Below are positions 2,232 through 40,438 of a stretch of 41,135 nucleotides of DNA, in pieces (the first letter of the stretch is position 1; each line of letters opens with the position of its first letter). The translations under genes and the position numbers were made by a program. The notes under the pieces are model-generated. The model was not told where the DNA came from. It did no database searches and worked only from the letters and a program-made list of their open reading frames with translations. The stretch is from a virus (taxonomy: Duplodnaviria; Heunggongvirae; Uroviricota; Caudoviricetes). Location of the stretch: IMG/VR virus record IMGVR_UViG_2909246061_000001, positions 1-41,135 of that record. The stretch is one strand, 5' to 3'.

Positions 2232-2653
2232 CCTCGCGCATACAGCCGGGCAGTGACGTCATCGTCTGCGCGGAAATGGACGAACAGTGGGGCTATGTCG
2301 GGGCTAAATCGCGCCAGCGCTGGCTGTTTTACGCGTATGACAGGCTCCGGAAGACGGTTGTTGCGCACGTATTCGGTGAACGCACTATGGCGACGCTGGG
2401 GCGTCTTATGAGCCTGCTGTCACCCTTTGACGTGGTGATATGGATGACGGATGGCTGGCCGCTGTATGAATCCCGCCTGAAGGGAAAGCTGCACGTAATC
2501 AGCAAGCGATATACGCAGCGAATTGAGCGGCATAACCTGAATCTGAGGCAGCACCTGGCACGGCTGGGACGGAAGTCGCTGTCGTTCTCAAAATCGGTGG
2601 AGCTGCATGACAAAGTCATCGGGCATTATCTGAACATAAAACACTATCAATAA
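2150..2653 (+). CDS. insB: IS1 InsB reading frame (expressed as InsAB' transposase by -1 frameshift at the tttaaaaaac motif near 2203..2212)
   Basis: ORF with canonical IS1 InsB sequence (…[29 protein letters not shown]…); A6C slippery run present. Confidence 0.8.
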
Positions 2654-3913
2654 GTTGGGACCATTACCCATTGGGGCATATTTATACTCGTCTATATGAC
2701 AGTTACTTTTTAAAATTTCACCCTTAAAATCCTCAATTATCTCTGAGTAAAATGATCTTAGTGCTTCATTTATTTTGAGATAGCTGTAATCATGTTCTGG
2801 CTTATAACCAATCAAAGTATATGCTCTTAAAAGACCACCAAATCGGGTTCTATAAACAGAAGATGAAGGGCCTGTATCATCTTCATCAATGATAAAGCCT
2901 GATAGTTTTCCATTAGATTCTAATTTTTGTTTTAGTTTTTCTAATAGATCTTCATTAGTCAAATGAATGGATCGGAGCTGAATTATTTCTTGAGCTTTAT
3001 TGTATTTTTTCTTTGAAATAATAGGTTTATATGCCTTGTCACATCTAACCCATTCATGTTTGGGGTTTTTTACAAGCCTACTTTTTAATTTAGATGAGGT
3101 TTTGTTATATATGTTGTTTCCAATATATTTTTCATTTGTCAAAATTTGATGTATTTTTGCACGAGTCCATAATGTTCCATTTTCTGCAGGTATGTTCTGT
3201 TCATTTAATCTCTCAGCAATAATGAATTCTGGGACGTTATTATCTATAAAGAGATCATATATTCTATTTACAATTTTTATTTCATTTTTTGGTCCCGGAA
3301 TTAATATTACCCTATCTGTTTGAATACTCTTTCTTTTGCGGAAACTCAATATTTCTTTAGCTATGCCATTTTCGTCTACTAAAAGACGTCTCAGCCCATA
3401 ACCAGCCATACCGCCTTGATGATAACCAAGCTTTATTAAATTTACTTGCCCTATAAATACCTTATCAGATAGATTCCTGCTGTGATATGCAGCACTAGAT
3501 CTTTTTATATTCAGTATAACAGAGGACTCTAAAGGGAAATCTTTAGTGGGTATAGGTTCGGAACAATATATAAGATCTACACCATTTCTCTCAAATAGAA
3601 AGGAATAATATGCCGCTTCATCACTATTTTGAAAACGACCAAAACGGCTCACATCATAAAATAATACAGCCTGTATATCTATTTTCTTTTGTTCTACATC
3701 GCTAAGTAACTGCTGCAAAGAATGCCTGCCTACGATACTGACTCCGCTCTTACCTGCATCATCGTAGGTATAAGCGATTTCCATATTGTTCTTTTCAGCA
3801 TAATCTTTGATATATTCGGACTGATTATGTAAAGAATATTGCTGATGGTCGGTAGACATCCTCAAGTACTGCGCGACCCTAACTCTATGATTTTTGTCAT
3901 TTTCGCTAGCCAT
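2588..3913 (-). CDS. large serine recombinase (resolvase-type catalytic domain plus recombinase domain); 3' end interrupted by IS1, so the last 27 codons are IS1-derived and the protein is probably non-functional
   Basis: N-terminal YLRMSTDHQ serine-recombinase motif; AT-rich; ORF crosses the IS1 right end at 2668. Confidence 0.6.
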
Positions 3914-4195
3914 GCACGAAACCTCATGGATGATTCAATACAATGTAGTGGATAAAATTGATCAAATTTCAACCGAATTCAACTGTTTTATCATTGATTA
4001 GAGCGAATTTGGTAGATCTTCGAGGTGTATGATAATCGAGAAGAGATGTGAATTATTTAGCTGATATGACCGACAGCTTTCGTTATGTGGACTCAATGTC
4101 CCCATTTGTAAATGGCTATGCTTAGTCCACATAGGTTAATGGTGTGATTATTAATTCTTTAACTAAATCAAGATAGTTAATCCATCATGGGAGAG

Positions 4196-5425
4196 TTATG
4201 CGGCAATAACTTTGCATTTTTGAGACGAAACATAGTCACTCCACCATTGCATGAGAACCACCCGTTCAGTGAGATACTCTGCACGATTGTAGGCTGCAAT
4301 TATTTCATCTTTCTTCGAGTGGGCAAGGGCGGCTTCTAAGACATCAGTCCTAAACTTGCCAGACTCCTCAGCAGCCGTTCTAGCAATGGATCGCATACCG
4401 TGAGCTACAAGCTCACCTCCGAAACCCATACGGATTATGGCCGCATTAGCTGTTTGTTCATGCATGTGATTGAGTGGAGCTTTGATACTGGGGAACACCC
4501 ACTCTCTATGCCCGCTGATGACTTTCATTAAATCCAAAACTCGCAAAGCTTCTTTGCTCAGTGGAACTTTGTGAGGCTTCTTCATTTTCATAAACTCCGC
4601 CGGGATGTTCCACATGCCAGTTTCAATATCAATATCTGACCATCTTGTGCGAACAGCTTCACCTGGGCGAACCCATGTGAGAAGTTGCCACTCAATCAGT
4701 AGCCTTGTTTCCAAACGGATAGAAGCATTGTTTAGAGCAACCAAGAAGCGAGGGAGTTCGGAAGGGGGTAATGCTGGCATATTCTGTTTTTTTGGCTTGC
4801 TGAACCGTTGCCCCAGGTTGTCTGCCGGGTTGAATTCTATGAGTTCTTCTGTTGCTGCATAGCGGAAAATTTCATTCAGGCGGGATATGATGCGGCGAAG
4901 TGTTTCAAGGACACCTCGTTTTTCTATGGGTTCTAAATGCTGTTTAAGCATTTTAGGGCGAATCTCCTTAATTGGGGTATCACCCAATGTGGAAAAGATA
5001 TTTCTCTCTAGGCTTCGCCAGATGTCGTTAGCATGATCTTGGGAGATGCCTGACGTTTTGACTTTCTCATCAAGCCACTTCTTGGCTACTGCTTGAAATG
5101 TATGTTCCGTGGCATCTTTCAGTGCATTGGCTTTTTGGTTGTTATGAACTTGGGGGTCTATACCATTTGTAAGCAACGACAAGTATTCATCACGTAAAGC
5201 TCGTGCCTTCGCAAGTGTAAGGTGAGGATAGGTTCCTAAGCTCACCTTAGTTCGCTTTTTGGTCACAGGCACTGCATATCTGAAATACCAATTTTTCTTC
5301 CCTCCCTTCGCCAGGGGAGCGATTCGCAACAGCAAACCATCGCCGTCAAAAAGGTTAACCTCTTTTTCGGCAGGTTTGGTGCTTTTGATTTCAGTGTCAG
5401 TGAGCTTCTTAGCGATTTTGGCCAT
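4196..5425 (-). CDS. tyrosine integrase, P4/CP4-57 IntA family
   Basis: N-terminus MAKIAKKLTDTEIKSTKP…DGDGLLLRI…WYFRY typical of P4-type integrases; C-terminal catalytic domain with …HGMRSIARTAAEESG… and YNRAEYLTER; probable ATG at 5425 (the track ORF extends to 5506); lies directly beside an ssrA 3'-end copy, as intA does beside ssrA in CP4-57. Confidence 0.85.
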   Translation of the reverse strand: MAKIAKKLTDTEIKSTKPAEKEVNLFDGDGLLLRIAPLAKGGKKNWYFRYAVPVTKKRTKVSLGTYPHLTLAKARALRDEYLSLLTNGIDPQVHNNQKANALKDATEHTFQAVAKKWLDEKVKTSGISQDHANDIWRSLERNIFSTLGDTPIKEIRPKMLKQHLEPIEKRGVLETLRRIISRLNEIFRYAATEELIEFNPADNLGQRFSKPKKQNMPALPPSELPRFLVALNNASIRLETRLLIEWQLLTWVRPGEAVRTRWSDIDIETGMWNIPAEFMKMKKPHKVPLSKEALRVLDLMKVISGHREWVFPSIKAPLNHMHEQTANAAIIRMGFGGELVAHGMRSIARTAAEESGKFRTDVLEAALAHSKKDEIIAAYNRAEYLTERVVLMQWWSDYVSSQKCKVIAA

Positions 5426-5522
5426 GTTTGGGACCCTCGATTTTAGGACCCATCTTCGTGGGTCCCATTCAGGGTGCCATAACTCGTAGTTCTCAGCAAT
5501 TCTCACTAGACTACAATAGACG

Positions 5523-5587: not shown

Positions 5588-5636
5588 TATTTGGTGGAGC
5601 TGGCGGGAGTTGAACCCGCGTCCGAAATTCCTACAT
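5588..5636. repeat. 49-bp direct repeat identical to the ssrA 3' end; left att site of the P2-like prophage
   Basis: 5588..5636 is identical to 40072..40120 and the sequences diverge immediately outside both copies. Confidence 0.85.
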
Positions 5637-5768: not shown

Positions 5769-7289
5769 TTATTCAGGCTTTAATTTATTGATAATAGAAT
5801 CTACCATTTTAATGCCTGCCTCATTGACTATGACTGAATTGACTACTCTATCAAAATAGTCCTCTATATGGTGGGAAAATAGGAAAGCAGCACTTGATGG
5901 TTTTTTGTTCTTTTCAACTGCAGATTGCAAGACTTCATGAGGCGGAATTTTAAACCTTTTGCATGATGCAATGAGATATTCAAACTCTTCAAATGATAGA
6001 CAAAAAATATTCTCTGTAGGGATATGATAGTTATGTTTAAACTTGTCATATATCTTATTCATCTCATCTTTAGCATAAGTATTAGCTAGGATACTACCAT
6101 TGCCTAAGAAAAGGTTTTTATATGTAATGCAAATGATATATGAGTTAGCCCTGAATGGAGCTATTATTCGCTCATTAGAGTATATTTCTCGATTAACTTC
6201 GTGAGATTGTTCGATTGCTTTTAATACCGATTTCTTTATTTTTCCTGCAATATCCTCAGGGCGTAATGTTACCATGCCTTTTTGGTGTATCTCAACGCCT
6301 TTAGCATCAATGAAAATATTTGCCTCAGTATGTGGAATGAAATAATCAACTACTTTATTATCTTTAGGTAGTCGTTCTTTAAGGTATTTTTCGTTATGAA
6401 AATCAATTTCGCTTTCTTTTAGTATTAATTCCAGTGCATTTTCAAATACATTTCCAAAGCTATCCATGAACTTCTCGGCATCAGTTCTTCTTAAAAGATC
6501 ATATATGAACGTCTGTATGCTTGTTGAAGTCAGTTGTGTGTGTATCTGAAAATACTCTGAACCTTTTTTTATTAATGGTTTTTCAAGAAAAGGTGATGAT
6601 GAGTAGTATTCAAGCAAAGGTTTATCATAGGTTTTTGATTTGCAAAATGTAGATAGTTCATTGTAATTTATTGATATTGCATCAAGAAATTTCTCAATGG
6701 TATTTCTAGGAATGATGTCAAATAATATAGTAAATGTATCTACATTCATTTTTCTCACGGGATGCTCTTCTGTTATGTGAGTTATTAATATGTAAGATAG
6801 CTTAAGAAAGTCTTCGATAGATACATTCGTGATAGTAAAAAAACTTTTCTTTATTTTATGGTTTTTTTCAAGTTCTGAAAATAGAAAGACTTGTCTGCTA
6901 ATTGTGTTTAGAGCGTCAATTTTCTGGTAGATTCCTTGTTGGTATAGATTATTTCTAATGAAGAAATGCATGCCATTCTTCCTCTCAAGACCGATAGGAA
7001 TAATGTTCAAGGTTTCATAAGTTTTTTGGAAGAGTTTTATTGCTTGATTTTTATCGAGGATTTTGAATTTTTTATTCTTGCCAGTTACTGACGCAGACCA
7101 CTTTAGACATAAATTAACAATCCAAGGCATGTGTCGTAACATGTGGATATTATCTTCAAATTTTTGTAAGTTATATTGCATACAGAATTCGATAAATAAA
7201 TCAGGGGAATAACCTTGGATTTCTGAACGAATAGCATCCATTCTTAACTTTGCAACCGCATCAGATTGAATATCTAATTTTTGAATCAC
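5769..7289 (-). CDS. hypothetical 506-aa protein; AT-rich cargo gene between the prophage integrase and the left att
   Basis: long ORF with GTG start and GGAGA RBS 13 bp after the int stop; very low GC against the phage backbone; I recognise no fold; possible PD-(D/E)xK-like signature VVDYF…IFIDAKG. Confidence 0.6.
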   Translation of the reverse strand: MIQKLDIQSDAVAKLRMDAIRSEIQGYSPDLFIEFCMQYNLQKFEDNIHMLRHMPWIVNLCLKWSASVTGKNKKFKILDKNQAIKLFQKTYETLNIIPIGLERKNGMHFFIRNNLYQQGIYQKIDALNTISRQVFLFSELEKNHKIKKSFFTITNVSIEDFLKLSYILITHITEEHPVRKMNVDTFTILFDIIPRNTIEKFLDAISINYNELSTFCKSKTYDKPLLEYYSSSPFLEKPLIKKGSEYFQIHTQLTSTSIQTFIYDLLRRTDAEKFMDSFGNVFENALELILKESEIDFHNEKYLKERLPKDNKVVDYFIPHTEANIFIDAKGVEIHQKGMVTLRPEDIAGKIKKSVLKAIEQSHEVNREIYSNERIIAPFRANSYIICITYKNLFLGNGSILANTYAKDEMNKIYDKFKHNYHIPTENIFCLSFEEFEYLIASCKRFKIPPHEVLQSAVEKNKKPSSAAFLFSHHIEDYFDRVVNSVIVNEAGIKMVDSIINKLKPE

Positions 7290-15697: not shown

Positions 15698-15763
15698 GCG
15701 CGCTTATTACTTTGATAGTACTCGGGTTATAATATGGATGACTATCTATCTCGGAGAATGTAC

Positions 15764-17416
15764 ATGTCATTAGACTATATTAAAGAACAGTTGTCAGACT
15801 TTATTTCATCTGCAGAACCTGAGGTAATGGCTATTCAGGGTGAGTGGGGGATTGGGAAAACCTATACTTGGAATGCTTTCTTAAAGGAAAATAAAAATAA
15901 GATTGCATTTAATAGATATAGTTACGTCTCTCTTTTTGGTGTTAATTCATTGGACGCATTAAAATACTCCATCTTTGAAAATACAATTACGAAAGATTTC
16001 ATTGGAAACAAACCTAATTTAAAAACAGCAACACAAAATGCAAAGGGGCTTCTTGAATCCTGCACTAGAAAGACCGCTCGTGTGTTAAAAGATACACCTT
16101 TTTTGAAAAATTTCACTACGACACTTGAGTCAATGTCATTTATGTCAATTACTAATGTTATTGTAGTCATAGATGACTTAGAAAGACGTGGTAAAAATTT
16201 AGAAGTGAAAGATGTCTTAGGGTTGGTTTCTTTATTGAAAGAACAAAAAAATTGTAAGGTGGTTCTTTTACTTAATAACGGGACAAGTGGTATGGATGAC
16301 TACTCCACTTATAAAGAAAAGGTTATTGATAGAGAGATTACCTATAATCCTACTCCAGAAGAATGTGCAGTTATAGCATATAAAAATAATTCTGATGTTC
16401 ATAAATTATTAAGCAAATACTCCATTTCCCTGGGTATTAAGAATATTAGGATACTGAAAAAAATAGAGCGGTTTTTGCTAGCCTTGTTACCTGGCATTAA
16501 CGTTAATTTTGAAAAAATTGCAAATGAAGTCGCACACTCCTTAACTTTGTATTGTTGGAGTCATTACGCATTTACTCCAGATGGAGATGTACCATCATTG
16601 GAGTATATTAGAAATATGAGAAATATCTATATGCGTGATGAAAAAGAGGATGGAAAAGAAAAAAAATGGCTTAATACTTTGCTTATATATGATTATAAAA
16701 AAACAAACGAACTTGATGAAGTCCTTATAGACATGGTAAAGCATGGATATATTGATATGAACAATTTCCAAAGGCAAGTAAGTCTAAGGAATGATGAACT
16801 TATCCGTGATAGTAAGCGAGGTTCACTGTTTGAAGCATGGAAGCTTTTCTATAATTCATTTGAAGATAACCGAAATCAGGTTATTGATAATCTATATCAA
16901 GCGGTGGTTGGTGGGATAGAGTATGTAACTCCAAGTGACTTGGATAGTGTTGTCGGACTGTATAGAGATTTAGGTGAAAATATTCAAGCAAGTGAATTAA
17001 TAAGTAAATTTATTAATTACGGCAATGATGCTCTTAAGGAATATGTTCAATCTATTTACATGAATGTTCATCCTATAAAAGATGCTGAGTTAAAGTCAAA
17101 AATCCAAGATTATTCTACTACTTTAAATCTGGATGGTTCTATAAAGGATGTTCTAATAAAATTATCAAGTCAGAATGGTTGGTCTGATAGGCACGAGGAA
17201 ATATTGGATGCTGCCTCAGAGGATGACTACTATGATTTATTTAAAAAAGTCATTCTTGATGGTGGTGATTCAATAATAGCTACTGCTCTTAAGTTTGGTG
17301 GGTATAGCAATGGTTCAGAAAGAATGAAACGCATCGGAGAAAAAGCGAGAAATGCTTTGATAAGAATTGGAAATGAGTCGAGCATTAATAAAATACGTGT
17401 TAGACGGTATTTGTAA
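15764..17416 (+). CDS. KAP-family P-loop NTPase-like protein (551 aa from the ATG at 15764); candidate anti-phage cargo
   Basis: Walker A GEWGIGKT (15839..15862) and Walker B VIVVIDDLER (about 16160..16186) in KAP-type spacing; GGAG RBS before ATG 15764; perfect TATAAT at 15728..15733; AT-rich; followed by a terminator hairpin. Confidence 0.7.
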   Translation: MSLDYIKEQLSDFISSAEPEVMAIQGEWGIGKTYTWNAFLKENKNKIAFNRYSYVSLFGVNSLDALKYSIFENTITKDFIGNKPNLKTATQNAKGLLESCTRKTARVLKDTPFLKNFTTTLESMSFMSITNVIVVIDDLERRGKNLEVKDVLGLVSLLKEQKNCKVVLLLNNGTSGMDDYSTYKEKVIDREITYNPTPEECAVIAYKNNSDVHKLLSKYSISLGIKNIRILKKIERFLLALLPGINVNFEKIANEVAHSLTLYCWSHYAFTPDGDVPSLEYIRNMRNIYMRDEKEDGKEKKWLNTLLIYDYKKTNELDEVLIDMVKHGYIDMNNFQRQVSLRNDELIRDSKRGSLFEAWKLFYNSFEDNRNQVIDNLYQAVVGGIEYVTPSDLDSVVGLYRDLGENIQASELISKFINYGNDALKEYVQSIYMNVHPIKDAELKSKIQDYSTTLNLDGSIKDVLIKLSSQNGWSDRHEEILDAASEDDYYDLFKKVILDGGDSIIATALKFGGYSNGSERMKRIGEKARNALIRIGNESSINKIRVRRYL

Positions 17417-26197: not shown

Positions 26198-26265
26198 TCT
26201 TTGTATCAGCACTGATACAAGTTGCAGCGCTGCCGCCTTTCTTCCCCTGATGGCAACCTTTCCCT

Positions 26266-28095: not shown

Positions 28096-28693
28096 TCTGC
28101 TGCCACCGGGTTCAACTTCACTGGAGCGCCGACTGGCGCAAACCTGTAGCGGGATTTCTGATCTGCAGGTGCCGCTGCGTGACTTGTGGAATCCGGCTAC
28201 CTGTCCGGTCAGCTTCCTACCTTATCTCGCCTGGGCGTTCTCTGTGGATCGCTGGGACGAGGGCTGGACAGAAAGCGTCAAACGCCAGGTAGTGAAGGAT
28301 GCTTTTTATATTCATCAGCATAAAGGAACCACCAGTGCCGTGCGGCGGGTGGTGGAACCGTTCGGATTCCTGATCCGCATTATTGAGTGGTGGCAGACCG
28401 GAGAAACACCGGGCACGTTTCGCCTGGATATCGGCGTGCAGGACCAGGGCATCACTGAAGATACCTATCTGGAACTTGAGCGGCTGATAAGCGATGCCAA
28501 ACCATGTAGCCGTCACATGATCGGCATGTCCATCAATCTGCAGACCAGCGGTCCGCATTGGGTGGGGGCCGCCAGCTATCTTGGCGAAGAAATCACGATC
28601 TATCCGTATATCAACGAAACAATTATTTCTGGCGGCACCGCGCATGAAGGCGGGGCGGTCCATGTTATTGACACAATGAGAGTGAATCCATGA
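28088..28693 (+). CDS. I: baseplate/tail-fibre attachment protein I (P2 gpI)
   Basis: position and size. Confidence 0.8.
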   Translation: MNSLLPPGSTSLERRLAQTCSGISDLQVPLRDLWNPATCPVSFLPYLAWAFSVDRWDEGWTESVKRQVVKDAFYIHQHKGTTSAVRRVVEPFGFLIRIIEWWQTGETPGTFRLDIGVQDQGITEDTYLELERLISDAKPCSRHMIGMSINLQTSGPHWVGAASYLGEEITIYPYINETIISGGTAHEGGAVHVIDTMRVNP

Positions 28694-30093
28694 GCACAAA
28701 ATTTTATACCCTGCTGACGGATATTGGCGCGGCGAAACTTGCCAGCGCCGCCGCGCTCGGTGTGCCGCTAAAAATTACCCATATGGCGGTCGGCGATGGC
28801 GGCGGAGTATTGCCAACGCCAGACTCAAAGCAGACTGCACTGGTAAATGAGAAACGCCGGGCTGCGCTGAATATGCTCTATATCGACCCGCAGAACAGCA
28901 GCCAGATTATTGCCGAACAGGTGATCCCTGAAAACGAGGGCGGTTGGTGGATACGTGAAGTGGGCTTGTTTGATGAGTCCGGGGCATTGATTGCCGTGGG
29001 CAACTGCCCGGAAAGCTATAAGCCGCAACTGGCTGAAGGTAGCGGGCGCACTCAGACCGTGCGCATGGTGCTGATTACCAGCAGCACGGACAATATCACC
29101 CTGAAAATCGACCCTGCCGTAGTGCTGGCAACCCGCAAGTATGTGGATGACAAGGCACTGGAGCTGAAGGTGTACGCGGATGATCAGATGGCAAAACATC
29201 TTGCCGCACCGGACCCGCATTCACAGTATGCACCCAAAGAAAGTCCGACGTTTACCGGGGCACCCAAAGCGCCAACGCCAGCCGCAGGGAATAACACCAC
29301 GCAGATTGCGACCACCGCGTTTGTTCAGGCGGCTCTGACGGCTCTTATTAATGGTGCGCCAGCCACGCTGGACACGCTGAAAGAAATAGCCGCAGCCATT
29401 AACAATGATCCGAAATTCAGTACCACCATTAACAATGCGTTGGCACTGAAAGCGCCGCTGTCGAGTCCGGCACTCACCGGAACGCCAACCGCACCTACTG
29501 CGGCACAGTCGGTCAACAATACACAGATTGCCACCACGGCATTTGTGAAATCGGCGATTGCGGCAATGGTGGGTTCTGCACCTGCGGCACTGGATACACT
29601 GAATGAACTGGCTGCGGCGCTGGGGAATGACCCGAACTTTGCCACGACAATGCTTAATGCGCTGGCAGGTAAACAACCGCTGGACAATACGCTGACTAAT
29701 TTGAGTGGAAAGGATGTAGCTGGTCTTCTCGCATACCTTGGTTTGGGAGAAGGTTCGGCATTACCCGTTGGTGTGCCTGTTCCGTGGCCCTCAGCCACTC
29801 CGCCAACAGGCTGGCTGAAATGCAATGGTGCGGCTTTTTCTGCTGAAGAATACCCGGAACTGGCAAAGGCTTACCAGACCAATAAATTGCCTGATTTACG
29901 CGGTGAATTTATTCGTGGCTGGGATGACGGTCGCGGGATTGATACTGGTCGCGCTTTGCTTAATTGGCAGCCACACACAATTTTGGACCATGCACACTAT
30001 ATGGAATTATGGACAGGGGACGGACTCGCCGCAGGAAGTGCACGGGAAGGAGTAAACCCAGGAATACTGGCTACATACGGTGACGGGGAATAG
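28690..30093 (+). CDS. H: tail fibre protein H; variable C-terminal part lies in an invertible segment and is frame-disrupted in this orientation
   Basis: N-terminal P2 H-like region; stop at 30091..30093; the canonical tail-fibre C-terminus [16 protein letters not shown] is encoded in the -1 frame (30084..30245) and ends with an ATGA overlap on the tfa start. Confidence 0.8.
   Translation: MSTKFYTLLTDIGAAKLASAAALGVPLKITHMAVGDGGGVLPTPDSKQTALVNEKRRAALNMLYIDPQNSSQIIAEQVIPENEGGWWIREVGLFDESGALIAVGNCPESYKPQLAEGSGRTQTVRMVLITSSTDNITLKIDPAVVLATRKYVDDKALELKVYADDQMAKHLAAPDPHSQYAPKESPTFTGAPKAPTPAAGNNTTQIATTAFVQAALTALINGAPATLDTLKEIAAAINNDPKFSTTINNALALKAPLSSPALTGTPTAPTAAQSVNNTQIATTAFVKSAIAAMVGSAPAALDTLNELAAALGNDPNFATTMLNALAGKQPLDNTLTNLSGKDVAGLLAYLGLGEGSALPVGVPVPWPSATPPTGWLKCNGAAFSAEEYPELAKAYQTNKLPDLRGEFIRGWDDGRGIDTGRALLNWQPHTILDHAHYMELWTGDGLAAGSAREGVNPGILATYGDGE
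29726..29751. repeat. left crossover site of the tail-fibre inversion system (hix/gix-like, 26 bp)
   Basis: ttctcgcataccttggtttgggagaa; its right half matches the reverse complement of the site at 31529..31554 (ttggtttgggagaa against ttggttttggagaa); inside H at codons LAYLGLGEG. Confidence 0.5.
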
Positions 30094-30241
30094 TTAAAAC
30101 GGACGAACCCGGTCTTAAGGTGCCTTCCTCACTACGAGCTCTTAGCTCTCGTAGTGTTAAACGTTATGGTGAAATTAGTGGAAATGTAGGTACAGAAACT
30201 CGTCCTCGTAACATCGCTTTTAATTATATTGTGAGGGCCGC

Positions 30242-30847
30242 ATGATGAATAAAGCTGTATTAAATAGCGAACTCATTGCCATAAAAGCGGGAGACATTAT
30301 CATTTATAATTATGATGGTGAAACGCGGGAATATATTTCTACATCAACTGAATATCTCGCTGTCGGCGTCGGTATCCCGGCATGTTCCTGTTTGGATGCA
30401 CCAGGTATACATAAAGCTGGTTATGCAATCTGTCGCTCTGTAGATTTAAATTCATGGGAATATGTGCCAGACCATCGCGGTGAAGTTGTCTATAGTACCG
30501 AAACGGGAGATACCAGAGAAATCACAGTTCCGGGTGATTACCCTGAAAATACAACCACTATCGCCCCATTAACGCCATACGATAAATGGGATGGTGAGAA
30601 ATGGGTGACCGATACTGAGGCACAGCATAGCGCCGCAGTAGAAGCGGCAGAAGCACAGCGCCAGTCACTGATTGATGCAGCAATGGCTTCCATTAGTCTG
30701 ATTCAGCTGAAATTACAGGCCGGGCGGAAACTGACGCAGGCAGAAACAACCCGGCTTAACGCTGTGCTGGATTACATTGACGCGGTGACGGCAACAGATC
30801 CCAGCACCGCGCCGGATGTCATCTGGCCTGAACTGCCGGAGGCGTAG
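30242..30847 (+). CDS. tail fibre assembly protein (Tfa, P2 gpG-like)
   Basis: C-terminal …[14 protein letters not shown] typical of Tfa; start overlaps the restored end of H. Confidence 0.8.
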
Positions 30848-31247
30848 GCCATTCAATATCGGGTGCTGTTGAAGTATCAACACGCATCAGCAGCACTCGG
30901 TATTTCTTCCATTCGGTGAGAGTTGAAGTTTCTTCATCAGTTGCGATATCAGCATCAACAGCATCCTGACGCCAGGATATTTCACTGTCAGCTTTTTCCC
31001 GTAATTGGGATTTTTTAACTTCAGCAATAGCTATTAATTCCTTTTGGGTCGGCTGAGGAATATCTATCAGTGCTGGTTTTCCATTCAGTGTTCCAATCTG
31101 TTTTCCTGGTGGAATATCCATAAATAACTTTTTATGTTCTTCCTCACTGACTATTACACCATCATCAGGCCACAGACCTGATGCCTCAAATTTTTCTTTC
31201 TCCGATATGGGGAAAAAGCCATTTGCTTTAGCGCTCCATACGTACAT
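30819..31247 (-). CDS. alternative tail fibre assembly protein (Tfa') in the invertible segment
   Basis: opposite strand; C-terminal …[14 protein letters not shown] typical of Tfa. Confidence 0.75.
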
Positions 31248-31372
31248 ATCAATACCCCACCGCTATAATGTCCACATTAAATCCCCGGGACCTGCCTGCC
31301 AGATGCTGGCCCCTGTTAATGATTTTGTTTGATGAACAACCGCCACATTTGCTGGCGATTGTGTTTCAGTTG

Positions 31373-31541
31373 TTACAGTACCGATATCATTCCAGTTAAT
31401 TGAGATGGAATAGTTCGTTGTTGTAAACGACCGGGGAAAGTTATGTGTCTTACATTGGTGCCAACAGGAAATCCAAGATAAACACGCTGAATTATCATTC
31501 CTCCAGGTAACATAACCCAGTTAGCACCTTCTCCAAAACCA
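31373..31541 (-). other. alternative tail-fibre C-terminal segment (Hv'), fused to H after inversion; short and possibly degenerate
   Basis: minus-strand frame encodes …INVGFGEGANW…, sharing the G(L/F)GEG junction with H at the crossover site. Confidence 0.45.
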
Positions 31542-31554
31542 ACGTTTATAAAAA
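31529..31554. repeat. right crossover site of the tail-fibre inversion system (hix/gix-like, 26 bp)
   Basis: ttctccaaaaccaacgtttataaaaa resembles hixL TTCTTGAAAACCAAGGTTTTTGATAA; inverted relative to the 29726 site; just upstream of the invertase gene. Confidence 0.5.
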
Positions 31555-31609: not shown

Positions 31610-32176
31610 ATGCTTATTGGCTATGTACGCGTGTCAACAAATGACCAGAACACCGATTTGCAACGTAATGCACTGAACTGCGCGGGATGTGAGCGGATTT
31701 TTGAGGACAAAATCAGTGGCACTAAGTCCGACAGACCGGGACTGAAAAAACTGCTCAGGACATTATCGGCAGGTGACACTCTGGTTGTCTGGAAGCTGGA
31801 CAGGTTGGGGCGCAGTATGCGGCATCTCGTTACGCTGATAGAAGAGCTGCGCCAGCGTGGCGTGAATTTCCGAAGCCTGACTGACAGTATTGATACCAGT
31901 ACCCCAATGGGCCGTTTCTTTTTTCATGTCATGGGTGCCTTGGCTGAAATGGAACGCGAACTGATAGTTGAACGTACCAGGGCGGGGATTGCTGCAGCTC
32001 GCGACAAAGGCAGAGTAGGTGGACGCCGTCCTAAGTTGACCACCGAACAGTGGGCACAGATTGGACGTTTACTAGAGGCCGGAGAATCAAGACAGCGTAT
32101 TGCACTGATTTTTGATGTGGGCGTTTCTACCATTTATAGAAAATTTCCGGCAAATAAGAGCAGTGAATCCCCCTGA
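31610..32176 (+). CDS. site-specific DNA invertase, Hin/Gin/Cin/Pin family serine recombinase
   Basis: MLIGYVRVSTNDQNTDLQRNAL…VVWKLDRLGRSMRHL…C-terminal HTH; nearly identical N-terminus to e14 Pin. Confidence 0.9.
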   Translation: MLIGYVRVSTNDQNTDLQRNALNCAGCERIFEDKISGTKSDRPGLKKLLRTLSAGDTLVVWKLDRLGRSMRHLVTLIEELRQRGVNFRSLTDSIDTSTPMGRFFFHVMGALAEMERELIVERTRAGIAAARDKGRVGGRRPKLTTEQWAQIGRLLEAGESRQRIALIFDVGVSTIYRKFPANKSSESP

Positions 32177-39451: not shown

Positions 39452-39475
39452 ACCTGCTACGGCAGGTTTTTATTC
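39452..39475 (+). terminator. terminator hairpin after ogr (bidirectional; overlaps the stop of the convergent 160-aa gene)
   Basis: acctgc-tacg-gcaggt followed by ttttatt. Confidence 0.45.
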
Positions 39476-39952
39476 ATCTGGGATCTCACCCGTTTCAAGA
39501 AAATGTATAAAGCCAGGCTCATCTATGATGATTGTGCCTTTCATCCTGGCTGCCGATACTTTTGATGGGCCTGCATTGTAACCGCAACAGAGCATCTGAA
39601 GGCTTTGGGTTACAGAGGTTCTTACCGTTAATCCTTGTTCATTCGCCTTATCAACCAATCTTTCTTTATCTGCTTTCTTAAATCCGGTAAAACACACATC
39701 GAATGTATTTTTTTTCGGACCTGACTGCTTAGTGAGATGTGAGTAGTTTTCGGGGAGGAATGACGCGCATTCCTGAATGGCTTGTTCTGGTGAATCGTAC
39801 TGTTTAAGAATGCGGTCTTTTCGGAAGGTTTTTATTCGAACGGTGTTCTTACAAATGCCCTGTATATGATTTTCGCTATAACTGATGCTCTGTATAGAGT
39901 GAACACCGATACGACCATTTGCATTGATGTAAACAAAGTGAAGTTCTTCCAT
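39470..39952 (-). CDS. hypothetical 160-aa protein with C-terminal BRCT-like domain and N-terminal WYL-like segment; AT-rich cargo between ogr and the right att
   Basis: ATG at 39952 with AAGAGG RBS; C-terminal CFTGF…GLTV…GYNAGPSKVSAARMKGTIIIDE resembles BRCT domains; N-terminal VRIKTFRKDRI resembles WYL motifs; low GC. Confidence 0.55.
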   Translation of the reverse strand: MEELHFVYINANGRIGVHSIQSISYSENHIQGICKNTVRIKTFRKDRILKQYDSPEQAIQECASFLPENYSHLTKQSGPKKNTFDVCFTGFKKADKERLVDKANEQGLTVRTSVTQSLQMLCCGYNAGPSKVSAARMKGTIIIDEPGFIHFLETGEIPDE

Positions 39953-40032
39953 GTGAAACCTCTTTGCATGATTTCAAGATGGCGACAGGCAAGATGGACG
40001 CAAAAGTCTGTCGCCATTTTGCCGCCACTACC

Positions 40033-40065
40033 AAAGAAAAAGGGGCTACGCTTTCACGTAACCCC
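40033..40065 (-). terminator. ssrA rho-independent terminator (phage-supplied copy inside the prophage right arm)
   Basis: minus-strand hairpin ggggttacg-tgaaag-cgtagcccc followed by tttttcttt, directly after the tmRNA 3' end. Confidence 0.6.
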
Positions 40066-40071
40066 TTGATT

Positions 40072-40120
40072 TATTTGGTGGAGCTGGCGGGAGTTGAACC
40101 CGCGTCCGAAATTCCTACAT
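40072..40120. repeat. 49-bp direct repeat at the prophage right junction, overlapping the ssrA 3' end
   Basis: identical to 5588..5636. Confidence 0.85.
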
Positions 40121-40438
40121 CCTCGGTACTACATGCTTAGTCAGTCTTTACATTCGCTTGCCAGCTGCGGACGGACACGCCACTAACAAACTAGCCTGAT
40201 TAAGTTTTAACGCTTCAACCCCAGGCAGGGCTTCCACGCGATCTCTTTTGGGTTTGACCTCTCTTGATCCCCGTCCTAAGAGCGGAGGCTAGGGAGAGAG
40301 GGCTCTAAGCAGGTTATTAAGCTGCTAAAGCGTAGTTTTCGTCGTTTGCGACTATTTTTTGCGGCTTTTTACGAGGCCAACCGCCCCTCGGCATGCACCT
40401 TGGGTTTCGCAAATCCCGTCGAATCCAGAATCAGCCCC
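40076..40438 (-). ncRNA. ssrA: tmRNA (SsrA), 363 nt, intact
   Basis: reverse complement reads GGGGCTGATTCTGGATTCGACGGGATTTGCGAAACCCAAGGTGCATGCC…GGACGCGGGTTCAACTCCCGCCAGCTCCACCA, matching E. coli tmRNA end to end. Confidence 0.95.

Follow-up and report, generated by a model that had tools for sequence, protein, structure and literature searches.

The tail-fibre gene H of this viral genome runs into a block of opposed genes bounded by two inverted repeats, with a recombinase gene directly beyond, and the question this locus raises is whether H is under the control of a DNA inversion switch and, if so, whether either state of that switch can still deliver a complete fibre. Positions below refer to the window, that is, the whole stretch of 41,135 nucleotides that was analysed. 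On the evidence set out here, the locus is very probably a site-specific inversion switch of the Pin type, by which a P2/Fels-2-like prophage, integrated at ssrA, can set its tail-fibre gene to either of two states. Its features are the following:

28690..29739, plus strand: codons 1-350 of tail-fibre gene H (last residues ...GLLAYL), the constant part, which is not included in the invertible segment
29726-29751, no strand assigned: left pix-like site, 26 bp, TTCTCGCATACC-TT-GGTTTGGGAGAA, core dinucleotide at 29738-29739
29740..30245, plus strand: variable C-terminal exon 1 of H, Collar domain, StfE-like, presently joined to H
30242..30847, plus strand: exon 1 tail-fibre assembly chaperone, TfaE-like, 201 aa (Pfam Caudo_TAP, 4.4e-31)
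30819..31247, minus strand: exon 2 tail-fibre assembly chaperone, TfaP/Mu U-like, 142 aa (Pfam Caudo_TAP, 1.7e-33)
31250..31540, minus strand: exon 2, the alternative C-terminal exon of H, silent, with a gp53-like C-terminal domain
31529-31554, no strand assigned: right pix-like site, 26 bp, TTCTCCAAAACC-AA-CGTTTATAAAAA, core at 31541-31542
31610..32176, plus strand: serine DNA invertase of the Pin/Gin/Hin subfamily, 188 aa (Resolvase and HTH_7 domains), just outside the segment
31650..31760, no strand assigned: candidate recombinational enhancer for Fis binding, within the 5' portion of the invertase gene, proposed by homology with gin and hin only

A first-pass annotation of this DNA had described about 1.8 kb between the two sites, containing the variable end of H, two opposed assembly genes and an alternative C-terminal segment, and all of these elements lie as it had placed them. 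The bracketed segment measures 1803 bp (29739-31541) and holds two alternative H exons, each followed by its own assembly-chaperone gene. The constant part of H, which carries the Pfam Phage_tail_fib N-terminal domain (E=7.5e-65), is 97% identical to the H of related prophages, whichever orientation state they are in. Exon 1 matches Pfam Collar (4.9e-15); exon 2 was aligned to an intact 111-aa ORF of E. coli 52F4, and its intact homologue matches Pfam Gp53-like_C (2.2e-6). The chaperone that belongs to exon 1 is 89.5% identical to TfaE of e14, and the one that belongs to exon 2 is 33% identical to TfaP and, in its C-terminal 63 aa, 43% identical to Mu U; the two tfa genes are convergent, and their 3' ends overlap by 29 nt. 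Translation across the left site gives ...AYLGLGEGSALP for H, and the minus-strand segment across the right site reads ...NVGFGEGANW, in agreement with the annotated G(L/F)GEG motif that H and the alternative segment both encode at the crossover. When 29739-31541 was flipped in silico, H stayed in frame and read ...GLLAYLGFGEGANW..., and the predicted flipped junctions are ...CATACCTTGGTTTTGGAGAAGGTGCT... and ...CTTCTCCCAAACCAACGTTTATAAAAA.... Intact fused versions of H are found in relatives, with 518 aa in L003 and 447 aa in L007.

The two inverted 26-bp sites at 29726..29751 and 31529..31554, the half-site they have in common and their resemblance to hix/gix had likewise been proposed from the letters of the sequence; the sites and their half-sites are confirmed, and the resemblance is borne out by pix and gix. 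The repeat finder also pairs the sites, as a 20-nt inverted repeat that is 90% complementary (29735-29754 and 31526-31545). The string TTCTCCMAAACCAA, which comprises the inner half and the core, occurs in exactly two copies in the 41-kb window, one per strand and with 0 mismatches, where about 6e-4 exact matches would be expected by chance according to our own arithmetic; no third copy was found in the 41-kb window with up to 2 mismatches allowed. Both sites have a 12-2-12 build, lie in inverted orientation and carry the same core dinucleotide (AA, each read from the inner half). When the sites were aligned with authentic pix and gix sequences from reference records, the reverse complement of the left site agrees with the e14 site TTCTCCCAAACCAAGGTTTTCGAGAG at 22 of 26 positions, and the right site is identical to the e14 site beside pinE at 24 of 26 (both from the MG1655 record); similarity to gix, taken from the Mu record, is seen as well. 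The outer half of the right site bears one private G-to-A change relative to all relatives compared. A shufflon or multiple-inversion system with at least three sites, of the type of p15B Min or the three-repeat P2-like locus of EPEC, was considered and rejected, as only two sites exist in the 41 kb.

By its sequence, the product of 31610..32176 belongs to the Hin/Gin/Cin/Pin small serine recombinases. It combines a Resolvase domain (7e-53, residues 3-135) with HTH_7 (1.2e-15, residues 138-181), places the catalytic Ser9 in a YVRVS motif (start MLIGYVRVS), and, compared over 181-184 aa, shows 85.6% identity to PinE and 74.5% to Gin. Residues that are specific to invertases and serve activation by Fis and the enhancer have been defined in Hin as K47, K/R48 and K/R51, together with Q151, R154 and L155 (PMC3798978); their counterparts here, with a numbering offset of -1, are K46/K47/R50 (KKLLR from residue 46) and Q150/R153/L154 (QIGRL from 150). 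To judge from the references given in PMC3798978, the enhancers of gin and hin are located within the invertase gene itself. We scanned synonymous-site identity in 20-codon windows among the invertase gene, pinE, gin and one phage homologue; among this gene and its pinE and gin counterparts, codons 11-50 showed no excess synonymous conservation. The scan for G-N13-C Fis-like sites likewise revealed no conserved pair, although an enhancer may still be present, as Fis sites are degenerate. A consensus scan upstream of 31610 found no sigma-70-like invertase promoter. By eye, the only -10-like TATAAA upstream of 31610 lies inside the outer half-site.

The genomic position of the invertase gene also follows a known plan. 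In phage P2, the V-operon terminator and the FI promoter flank fun(Z); here the invertase takes that place, and domain matches together with the P2 gene order bear out the earlier placement of the gene immediately outside the segment in the Z/fun position. Ogr-type dyads (TGT-N12-ACA) are not above chance in total, with 13 against 11 by chance; three of them stand at expected late-promoter positions (20294, 26202 and 32225), which fits the operon logic of P2 without proving it.

At least 80% of the late region is present in 365 complete E. coli genomes; among phage records none reaches 80% coverage of it, and in the phage collection exons of the Collar type are rare. The comparison with related prophages that the first-pass annotation had suggested revealed near-identical E. 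coli prophages in opposite orientations, with clean breakpoints at the 26-bp sites. Between L007 and L006, the flanks are 99.8-99.9% collinear and a segment of 1814 bp is 99.8% identical on the opposite strand, the breakpoints falling at 29738-29754 on the left and 31527-31545 on the right (window coordinates). The prophages that show inversion at these breakpoints are 96-98% identical to the window, and both orientations, with breakpoints at the sites, occur in prophages whose invertases are 97.9% identical to that of the window (the figure for L001 and L007). The inner half-sites differ at position 7 (C or A), and this marker swaps its outer partners between the two states, which places the crossover inside AAACCAA, core included; a natural marker thus locates the exchange in the core region without experiment. 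In complete E. coli genomes, the gp53-like cassette adjoins the invertase, and is hence silent, in 80 cases and is fused to H in 18. The clonal isolate CUVET23-RF4 equals its sister isolate outside the segment; inside, its assembly is a chimeric consensus of both orientations.

These comparisons bear directly on a reading in which the inverted repeats are merely the G(L/F)GEG coding motif of two recombined fibre modules and the segment never inverts. Although the repeats do sit in the coding sequence of a conserved motif, and tail-fibre genes are notoriously mosaic, the match to pix extends over the full 26-bp sites, the non-coding outer half beside the invertase included, and an intact invertase gene adjoins the segment. 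Near-identical prophages that differ by a clean inversion with half-site exchange already contradict this reading, and we regard its probability as negligible. The matches of sites, enzyme and layout, taken together with near-identical prophages in both orientations and breakpoints at the 26-bp sites, instead support an invertible segment, and the switch may be active in this very copy as well. The private change in the right site, the frameshifts described below and the negative enhancer and promoter scans count against the switch reading.

In such a switch, dimers of the 188-aa serine invertase would bind the two inverted 26-bp sites and, if they behave as in the Hin, Gin and Cin systems, the site-bound dimers would assemble on supercoiled DNA with an enhancer that lies in the 5' part of the invertase gene and is bound by Fis. 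Ser9 would cut the central TT/AA with a 2-bp stagger, a half-tetramer would turn by 180 degrees, and religation of the ends would leave the 1803 bp (29739-31541) flipped. The constant 350 codons of H would be transcribed from the late V-operon promoter and would continue, in the present orientation, into the 168-codon Collar/StfE-like end followed by the TfaE-like chaperone gene or, in the other orientation, into the 97-codon gp53-like end followed by the TfaP-like chaperone gene. Whichever cassette points away from H would be silent because it has neither a promoter nor an N-terminus, and with two alternative fibre ends a lysogen population would release virions of two receptor specificities. 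The dependence on Fis and the enhancer, this expression logic and the host-range consequence presumably apply to the present locus.

As assembled, however, both alternative exons are frameshifted and neither encodes a complete product. In exon 1, a G5-to-G4 contraction at 30085-30088 (a 1-nt deletion, placed by comparison with L003 and L011) makes the H ORF stop at 30093, 51 codons short of the conserved C-terminal end; once repaired, H is 97.7% identical to that of L003, which is intact at 518 aa. Exon 2 carries two 1-nt run contractions, at GGGG 31433-31436 and CCCC 31283-31286 on the plus strand. All three are 5-to-4 contractions of G/C runs. The exon 1 deletion was not found in complete E. 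coli genomes (the best matches span 322 nt against a 321-nt query), nor were the exon 2 deletions found in E. coli, where the best matches span 323 nt against a 321-nt query, so that they are private to the window; relatives carry intact exons. The first-pass annotation had overlooked the frameshifts in both exons. With both exons interrupted, the fibre would be truncated in either state, barring sequence errors at the three indels.

If the frameshifts are real, the segment may still flip, but no complete fibre would be made in either orientation and the host-range function would have been lost in this lineage. The early end of H at 30093, the two 1-nt deletions in the alternative exon, the absence of all three frameshifts from every complete E. 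coli genome and the private substitution in the right site are in line with such decay. Decay should nevertheless extend beyond the segment, and no further uncompensated indel was found in 23 kb, nor in the about 21 kb of late genes compared with L011. The three events are all of one kind, a 5-to-4 G/C contraction, while the 11 G/C runs of at least 5 outside the segment are unaffected; the cassette was already silent, and two lesions there were unneeded for its inactivation; and the sister-clone assembly shows this region to be prone to consensus errors. We consider loss of function in this lineage possible but doubtful, and the three private contractions are probably an artefact of assembly or polishing. 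A general homopolymer error in the assembly was rejected as a sufficient explanation: the 11 G/C runs of at least 5 that lie outside the segment in the window contain no uncompensated indel, and none of that length is left inside.

Another reading is that inversion benefits the bacterium rather than the phage, for example through a chimeric or truncated fibre protein that blocks adsorption of other phages. Such an effect is on record for e14, where StfE2, the product of PinQ-driven inversion of the 1797-bp P segment, blocks adsorption (PMC12529663); the present module is of the e14 type (PinE 85.6%, TfaE 89.5%), and the same cassette was found beside pinE in an e14-like element. The P2-type late region looks otherwise intact, however, with all tail and baseplate genes, which makes a host-range role for the phage the simpler explanation, and the constant part is P2 gpH-like rather than StfP. 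A service to the host is, in our judgement, quite unlikely. Very unlikely, too, is that genuine frameshifts have produced a domesticated phase-variable module, yielding truncated or chimeric fibre fragments like StfE2, or reflect selection against a functional fibre in both phases; were that so, the element would no longer be a phage host-range switch.

A phage tail-fibre switch of the Pin type, which remains the preferred reading, has little importance as a discovery, the system being ordinary and well documented: such segments in P2-like prophages are already known, annotated, widespread and experimentally documented. For annotators, it means that either orientation, as well as consensus errors, should be expected inside such segments, and that frameshifted tail-fibre genes found there should be compared with the reads before they are labelled pseudogenes.

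Among known systems, the gene layout follows the plan of Mu G and e14 P: the constant N-terminal part and the invertase flank a segment that holds two alternative C-terminal exons, each with its cognate chaperone. The original proposal of a host-range switch in the style of Mu G or e14 P therefore stands with regard to layout, sites, enzyme and the occurrence of both orientations in relatives, but the module is of the e14 type (TfaE 89.5%, PinE 85.6%) and not of the Mu type. The e14 P segment with PinE of E. coli K-12 is the closest relative, rather than Mu G. Besides these protein identities, it shares sites that agree at 24/26 and 22/26 positions, a similar length (1797 bp, PMC12529663, against 1803 bp in the window) and an identical layout, including the 29-nt 3' overlap of the tfa genes and an invertase just outside. 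It differs in that its constant part is StfP of a lambdoid remnant, whereas the window combines a P2 gpH-like constant part, bearing the Phage_tail_fib N-terminal domain, with a complete P2-type late region. The second cassette of the window differs too, being gp53-like and having a chaperone that shares just 33% identity with TfaP.

P2-like invertible segments (EPEC, Fels-2, Peduoviridae) come from the same phage family and share the slot between the H cluster and FI and the kind of invertase, although their cassette contents differ between phages. In the P2-like prophages of EPEC E2348/69, phase variation by inversion has been measured and shown by sequencing (PMC4272514), and for the tail-fibre gene of Fels-2 inversion has been inferred, with STM2702 as the pin homologue (PMC7953296). 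One EPEC locus has three repeats and four variants, whereas the window has two sites only. Escherichia phage 500465-1, with an annotated 'DNA invertase' and the same layout, matches 74% of the region at 93% identity.

Mu G (Gin) and P1 C (Cin) work by the same mechanism, with a constant Sc, alternative Sv/Sv' exons, U/U' chaperones and the invertase outside; Mu Gin is 74.5% identical, and gix, TTATCCAAAACC-TC-GGTTTACAGGAA, shares the 12-2-12 build. The Mu segment is longer, however, at about 3 kb, its core is TC as opposed to AA in the window, and its fibre modules are unrelated except for the chaperone C-terminus. The Hin/hix flagellar switch of Salmonella has an invertase of the same subfamily, with conserved contact residues for Fis and the enhancer (PMC3798978), but Hin acts on a promoter and is encoded within the segment it inverts, whereas in the window the exchange is between coding exons and the invertase gene is external to the segment.

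Two E. coli prophages, those of CUVET23-CCU12 and WP8-S17-ESBL-05, encode identical invertase and chaperone proteins and have collinear flanks (99.8–99.9% identical), between which a 1814-bp segment, itself 99.8% identical, lies on opposite strands. The breakpoints, on window coordinates, are 29738-29754 and 31527-31545. The comparison with related prophages suggested by the first-pass annotation thus found both orientations, with breakpoints at the two 26-bp sites which that annotation had recognized and whose coordinates proved correct when the sequence was inspected.

Recombination sites and contents of the segment
29726-29751, left 26-bp site, TTCTCGCATACC-TT-GGTTTGGGAGAA
31529-31554, right 26-bp site, TTCTCCAAAACC-AA-CGTTTATAAAAA
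Between the sites, 3' end of H with Collar domain
Between the sites, plus strand, TfaE-like chaperone gene
Between the sites, minus strand, second chaperone gene
Between the sites, minus strand, alternative exon, starting ...NVGFGEGANW

Using junction-specific 200-nt queries against complete E. coli genomes, we found the gp53-like cassette abutting the invertase gene in 80 and fused to H in 18. A natural marker at position 7 of the inner half-site reads C in the half next to the Collar cassette and A in the half next to the gp53-like one, and the inner halves swap outer partners between the two orientation states; exchange is therefore confined to AAACCAA, which includes the core dinucleotide. 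In CUVET23-RF4, a clone of CCU12 that differs by one base in ~6.7 kb of flanks, the segment shows hundreds of differences from CCU12, matches one orientation in part and the other in part, and looks like a chimeric consensus of mixed-orientation reads, indirect evidence that the culture contained both orientations. RefSeq calls the segment genes of this genome (NZ_CM172035.1, positions 3250-5075 of the extracted locus L005) frameshifted or incomplete.

The site pair was recovered by a repeat finder as a 20-nt inverted repeat of 90% complementarity. The sequence TTCTCCMAAACCAA, made up of the inner half-site and the core, has exactly two copies in the 41 kb, one per strand, where about 6e-4 exact matches would be expected by chance (our own arithmetic), and no third site appeared in the 41 kb when up to 2 mismatches were allowed. 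With only two sites in the window, a shufflon is ruled out in favor of a simple two-site switch. For the proposed alignment to known invertase sites, reference sites were extracted from the MG1655 e14 and Mu records: the right site matches the e14 site by pinE (TTCTCCCAAACCAACGTTTATGAAAA) at 24/26 positions, and the reverse complement of the left site matches the one within stfP (TTCTCCCAAACCAAGGTTTTCGAGAG) at 22/26. In the Mu G segment, TTATCCAAAACCTCGGTTTACAGGAA is present at both boundaries. The outer half of the right site (31543-31554, CGTTTATAAAAA) carries a private G->A change, its eighth base being G in the nine related loci compared, e14 included (CGTTTATGAAAA or CGTTTAAGAAAA).

Directly outside the segment lies the gene for a 188-aa protein with Resolvase and HTH_7 domains and Ser9 in YVRVS, 85.6% identical to PinE and 74.5% to Gin. 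As the first-pass annotation had stated, it occupies the position of Z/fun in phage P2, where fun(Z) is flanked by the terminator of the V operon and the promoter of FI. Certain Hin residues are conserved only in Fis/enhancer-dependent invertases (McLean et al., PMC3798978); Hin K47, K/R48 and K/R51 correspond here to K46, K47 and R50, and Q151, R154 and L155 to Q150, R153 and L154. A consensus scan found no consensus promoter for the gene, whose promoter is presumed.

When 29739-31541 is inverted in silico, codon 350 of H reads on in frame into the alternative exon. Both fusion products have intact H homologues, of 518 aa in E. coli 2022CK-00450 (Collar type) and 447 aa in WP8-S17-ESBL-05 (gp53-like type). 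TfaE and the plus-strand chaperone share 89.5% identity. The two convergent chaperone genes have a 29-nt overlap at their 3' ends (30819-30847), as in e14 (tfaP/tfaE) and every P2-like relative inspected. In E. coli EC1515 (NZ_CP021844.1, L004 2188-4904), the cassette of Collar-type exon and TfaE is found by pinE in an e14-like element and also near ssrA, with 99.7% identity across the last ~320 nt of the exon and the tfaE start; such cassettes are therefore exchanged among lambdoid remnants and P2-like prophages.

In the window copy, both alternative H exons are frameshifted by three private G/C-run contractions, all within the segment. A G5 run contracted to G4 at 30085-30088 ends the H reading frame at 30093, and the silent exon has two more five-to-four contractions (31433-31436 and 31283-31286). 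None of the three occurs in any complete E. coli genome searched, and ~21 kb of late genes compared held no other uncompensated indel. G/C runs of at least 5 number 0 inside the segment and 11 outside, the latter all free of indels; three random events would all fall in the segment with a probability of about 5e-4. The contractions could be real decay of the exons, which we consider rather unlikely. An assembly, consensus or polishing artefact seems the most likely cause; the region is invertible, and E. coli genomes contain its cassettes in multiple copies.

We propose that the invertase would bind both 26-bp sites. As for Hin, Gin and Cin, its activation would depend on an enhancer occupied by Fis, which by this analogy should lie within the 5' portion of the invertase gene, although tests there gave no distinct enhancer signal. 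Cleavage at the 2-bp core, rotation of half the tetramer and religation would then invert 1803 bp. The late V-operon promoter would transcribe H with whichever exon and chaperone face it, leaving the cassette that faces away silent and probably altering host range. Ogr-type dyads at 26202 (upstream of V) and 32225 (upstream of FI), although statistically not distinctive, fit P2 operon logic.

The P2/Fels-2-like prophage adjoins ssrA (tmRNA 40076-40438, minus strand), and its late genes follow the usual order (portal, terminase, capsid, lysis, V, W, J, I, H, FI, FII, E, T, U, D), identical in an annotated E. coli relative. E. coli genomes match both prophage and flanking host genes, and 365 complete ones contain 80% or more of the 25-kb late region at ~96–97% identity. 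The ssrA 3' end (40072-40120) is repeated exactly, over 49 bp, at 5588-5636, which puts the prophage ends at roughly 5.6 and 40.1 kb. A further 56-bp copy (1481-1536 versus 40026-40081, 96% identical) suggests a second island in tandem beside the prophage.

Putative second island and cargo genes
2150-2653, IS1 of the putative island
2588-3913, large serine recombinase of the putative island
4196-5506, P4-type integrase of the putative island
5769-7289, minus strand, 506-aa cargo ORF, ~31% GC, between prophage integrase and att repeat
15734-17416, plus strand, cargo gene with KAP-family P-loop NTPase domain (PADLOC PDC-S49, 1.8e-25)
39470-39952, minus strand, 160-aa ORF between ogr and ssrA, weak PADLOC PDC-S48 match (1.7e-7)

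The KAP-family gene, of low GC (about 33–40%), has the replication genes on one side and the portal gene on the other, and PDC-S49 is a PADLOC candidate defence family. Relatives carry DUF262, dCTP deaminase or AAA ATPase genes there instead, and the spot looks like a defence hotspot. The 506-aa ORF had no Pfam or PADLOC match and the 160-aa ORF no Pfam match.

The module is the e14 P segment placed in a P2-type fibre gene. Since an e14 inversion product is reported to block T2 adsorption (PMC12529663), it is possible, with low probability, that modules of this kind benefit the host as well. Inversion phase variation has been measured in two EPEC P2-like prophages and e14 (Goldberg et al., PMC4272514), and a pin homologue is described as inverting the Fels-2 tail-fibre gene (Zaworski et al., PMC7953296), in agreement with the present data. 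Annotations of Peduoviridae phages already show this arrangement, among them that of Escherichia phage 500465-1, which lists a 'DNA invertase' within a matching layout, and this type of switch is already known.
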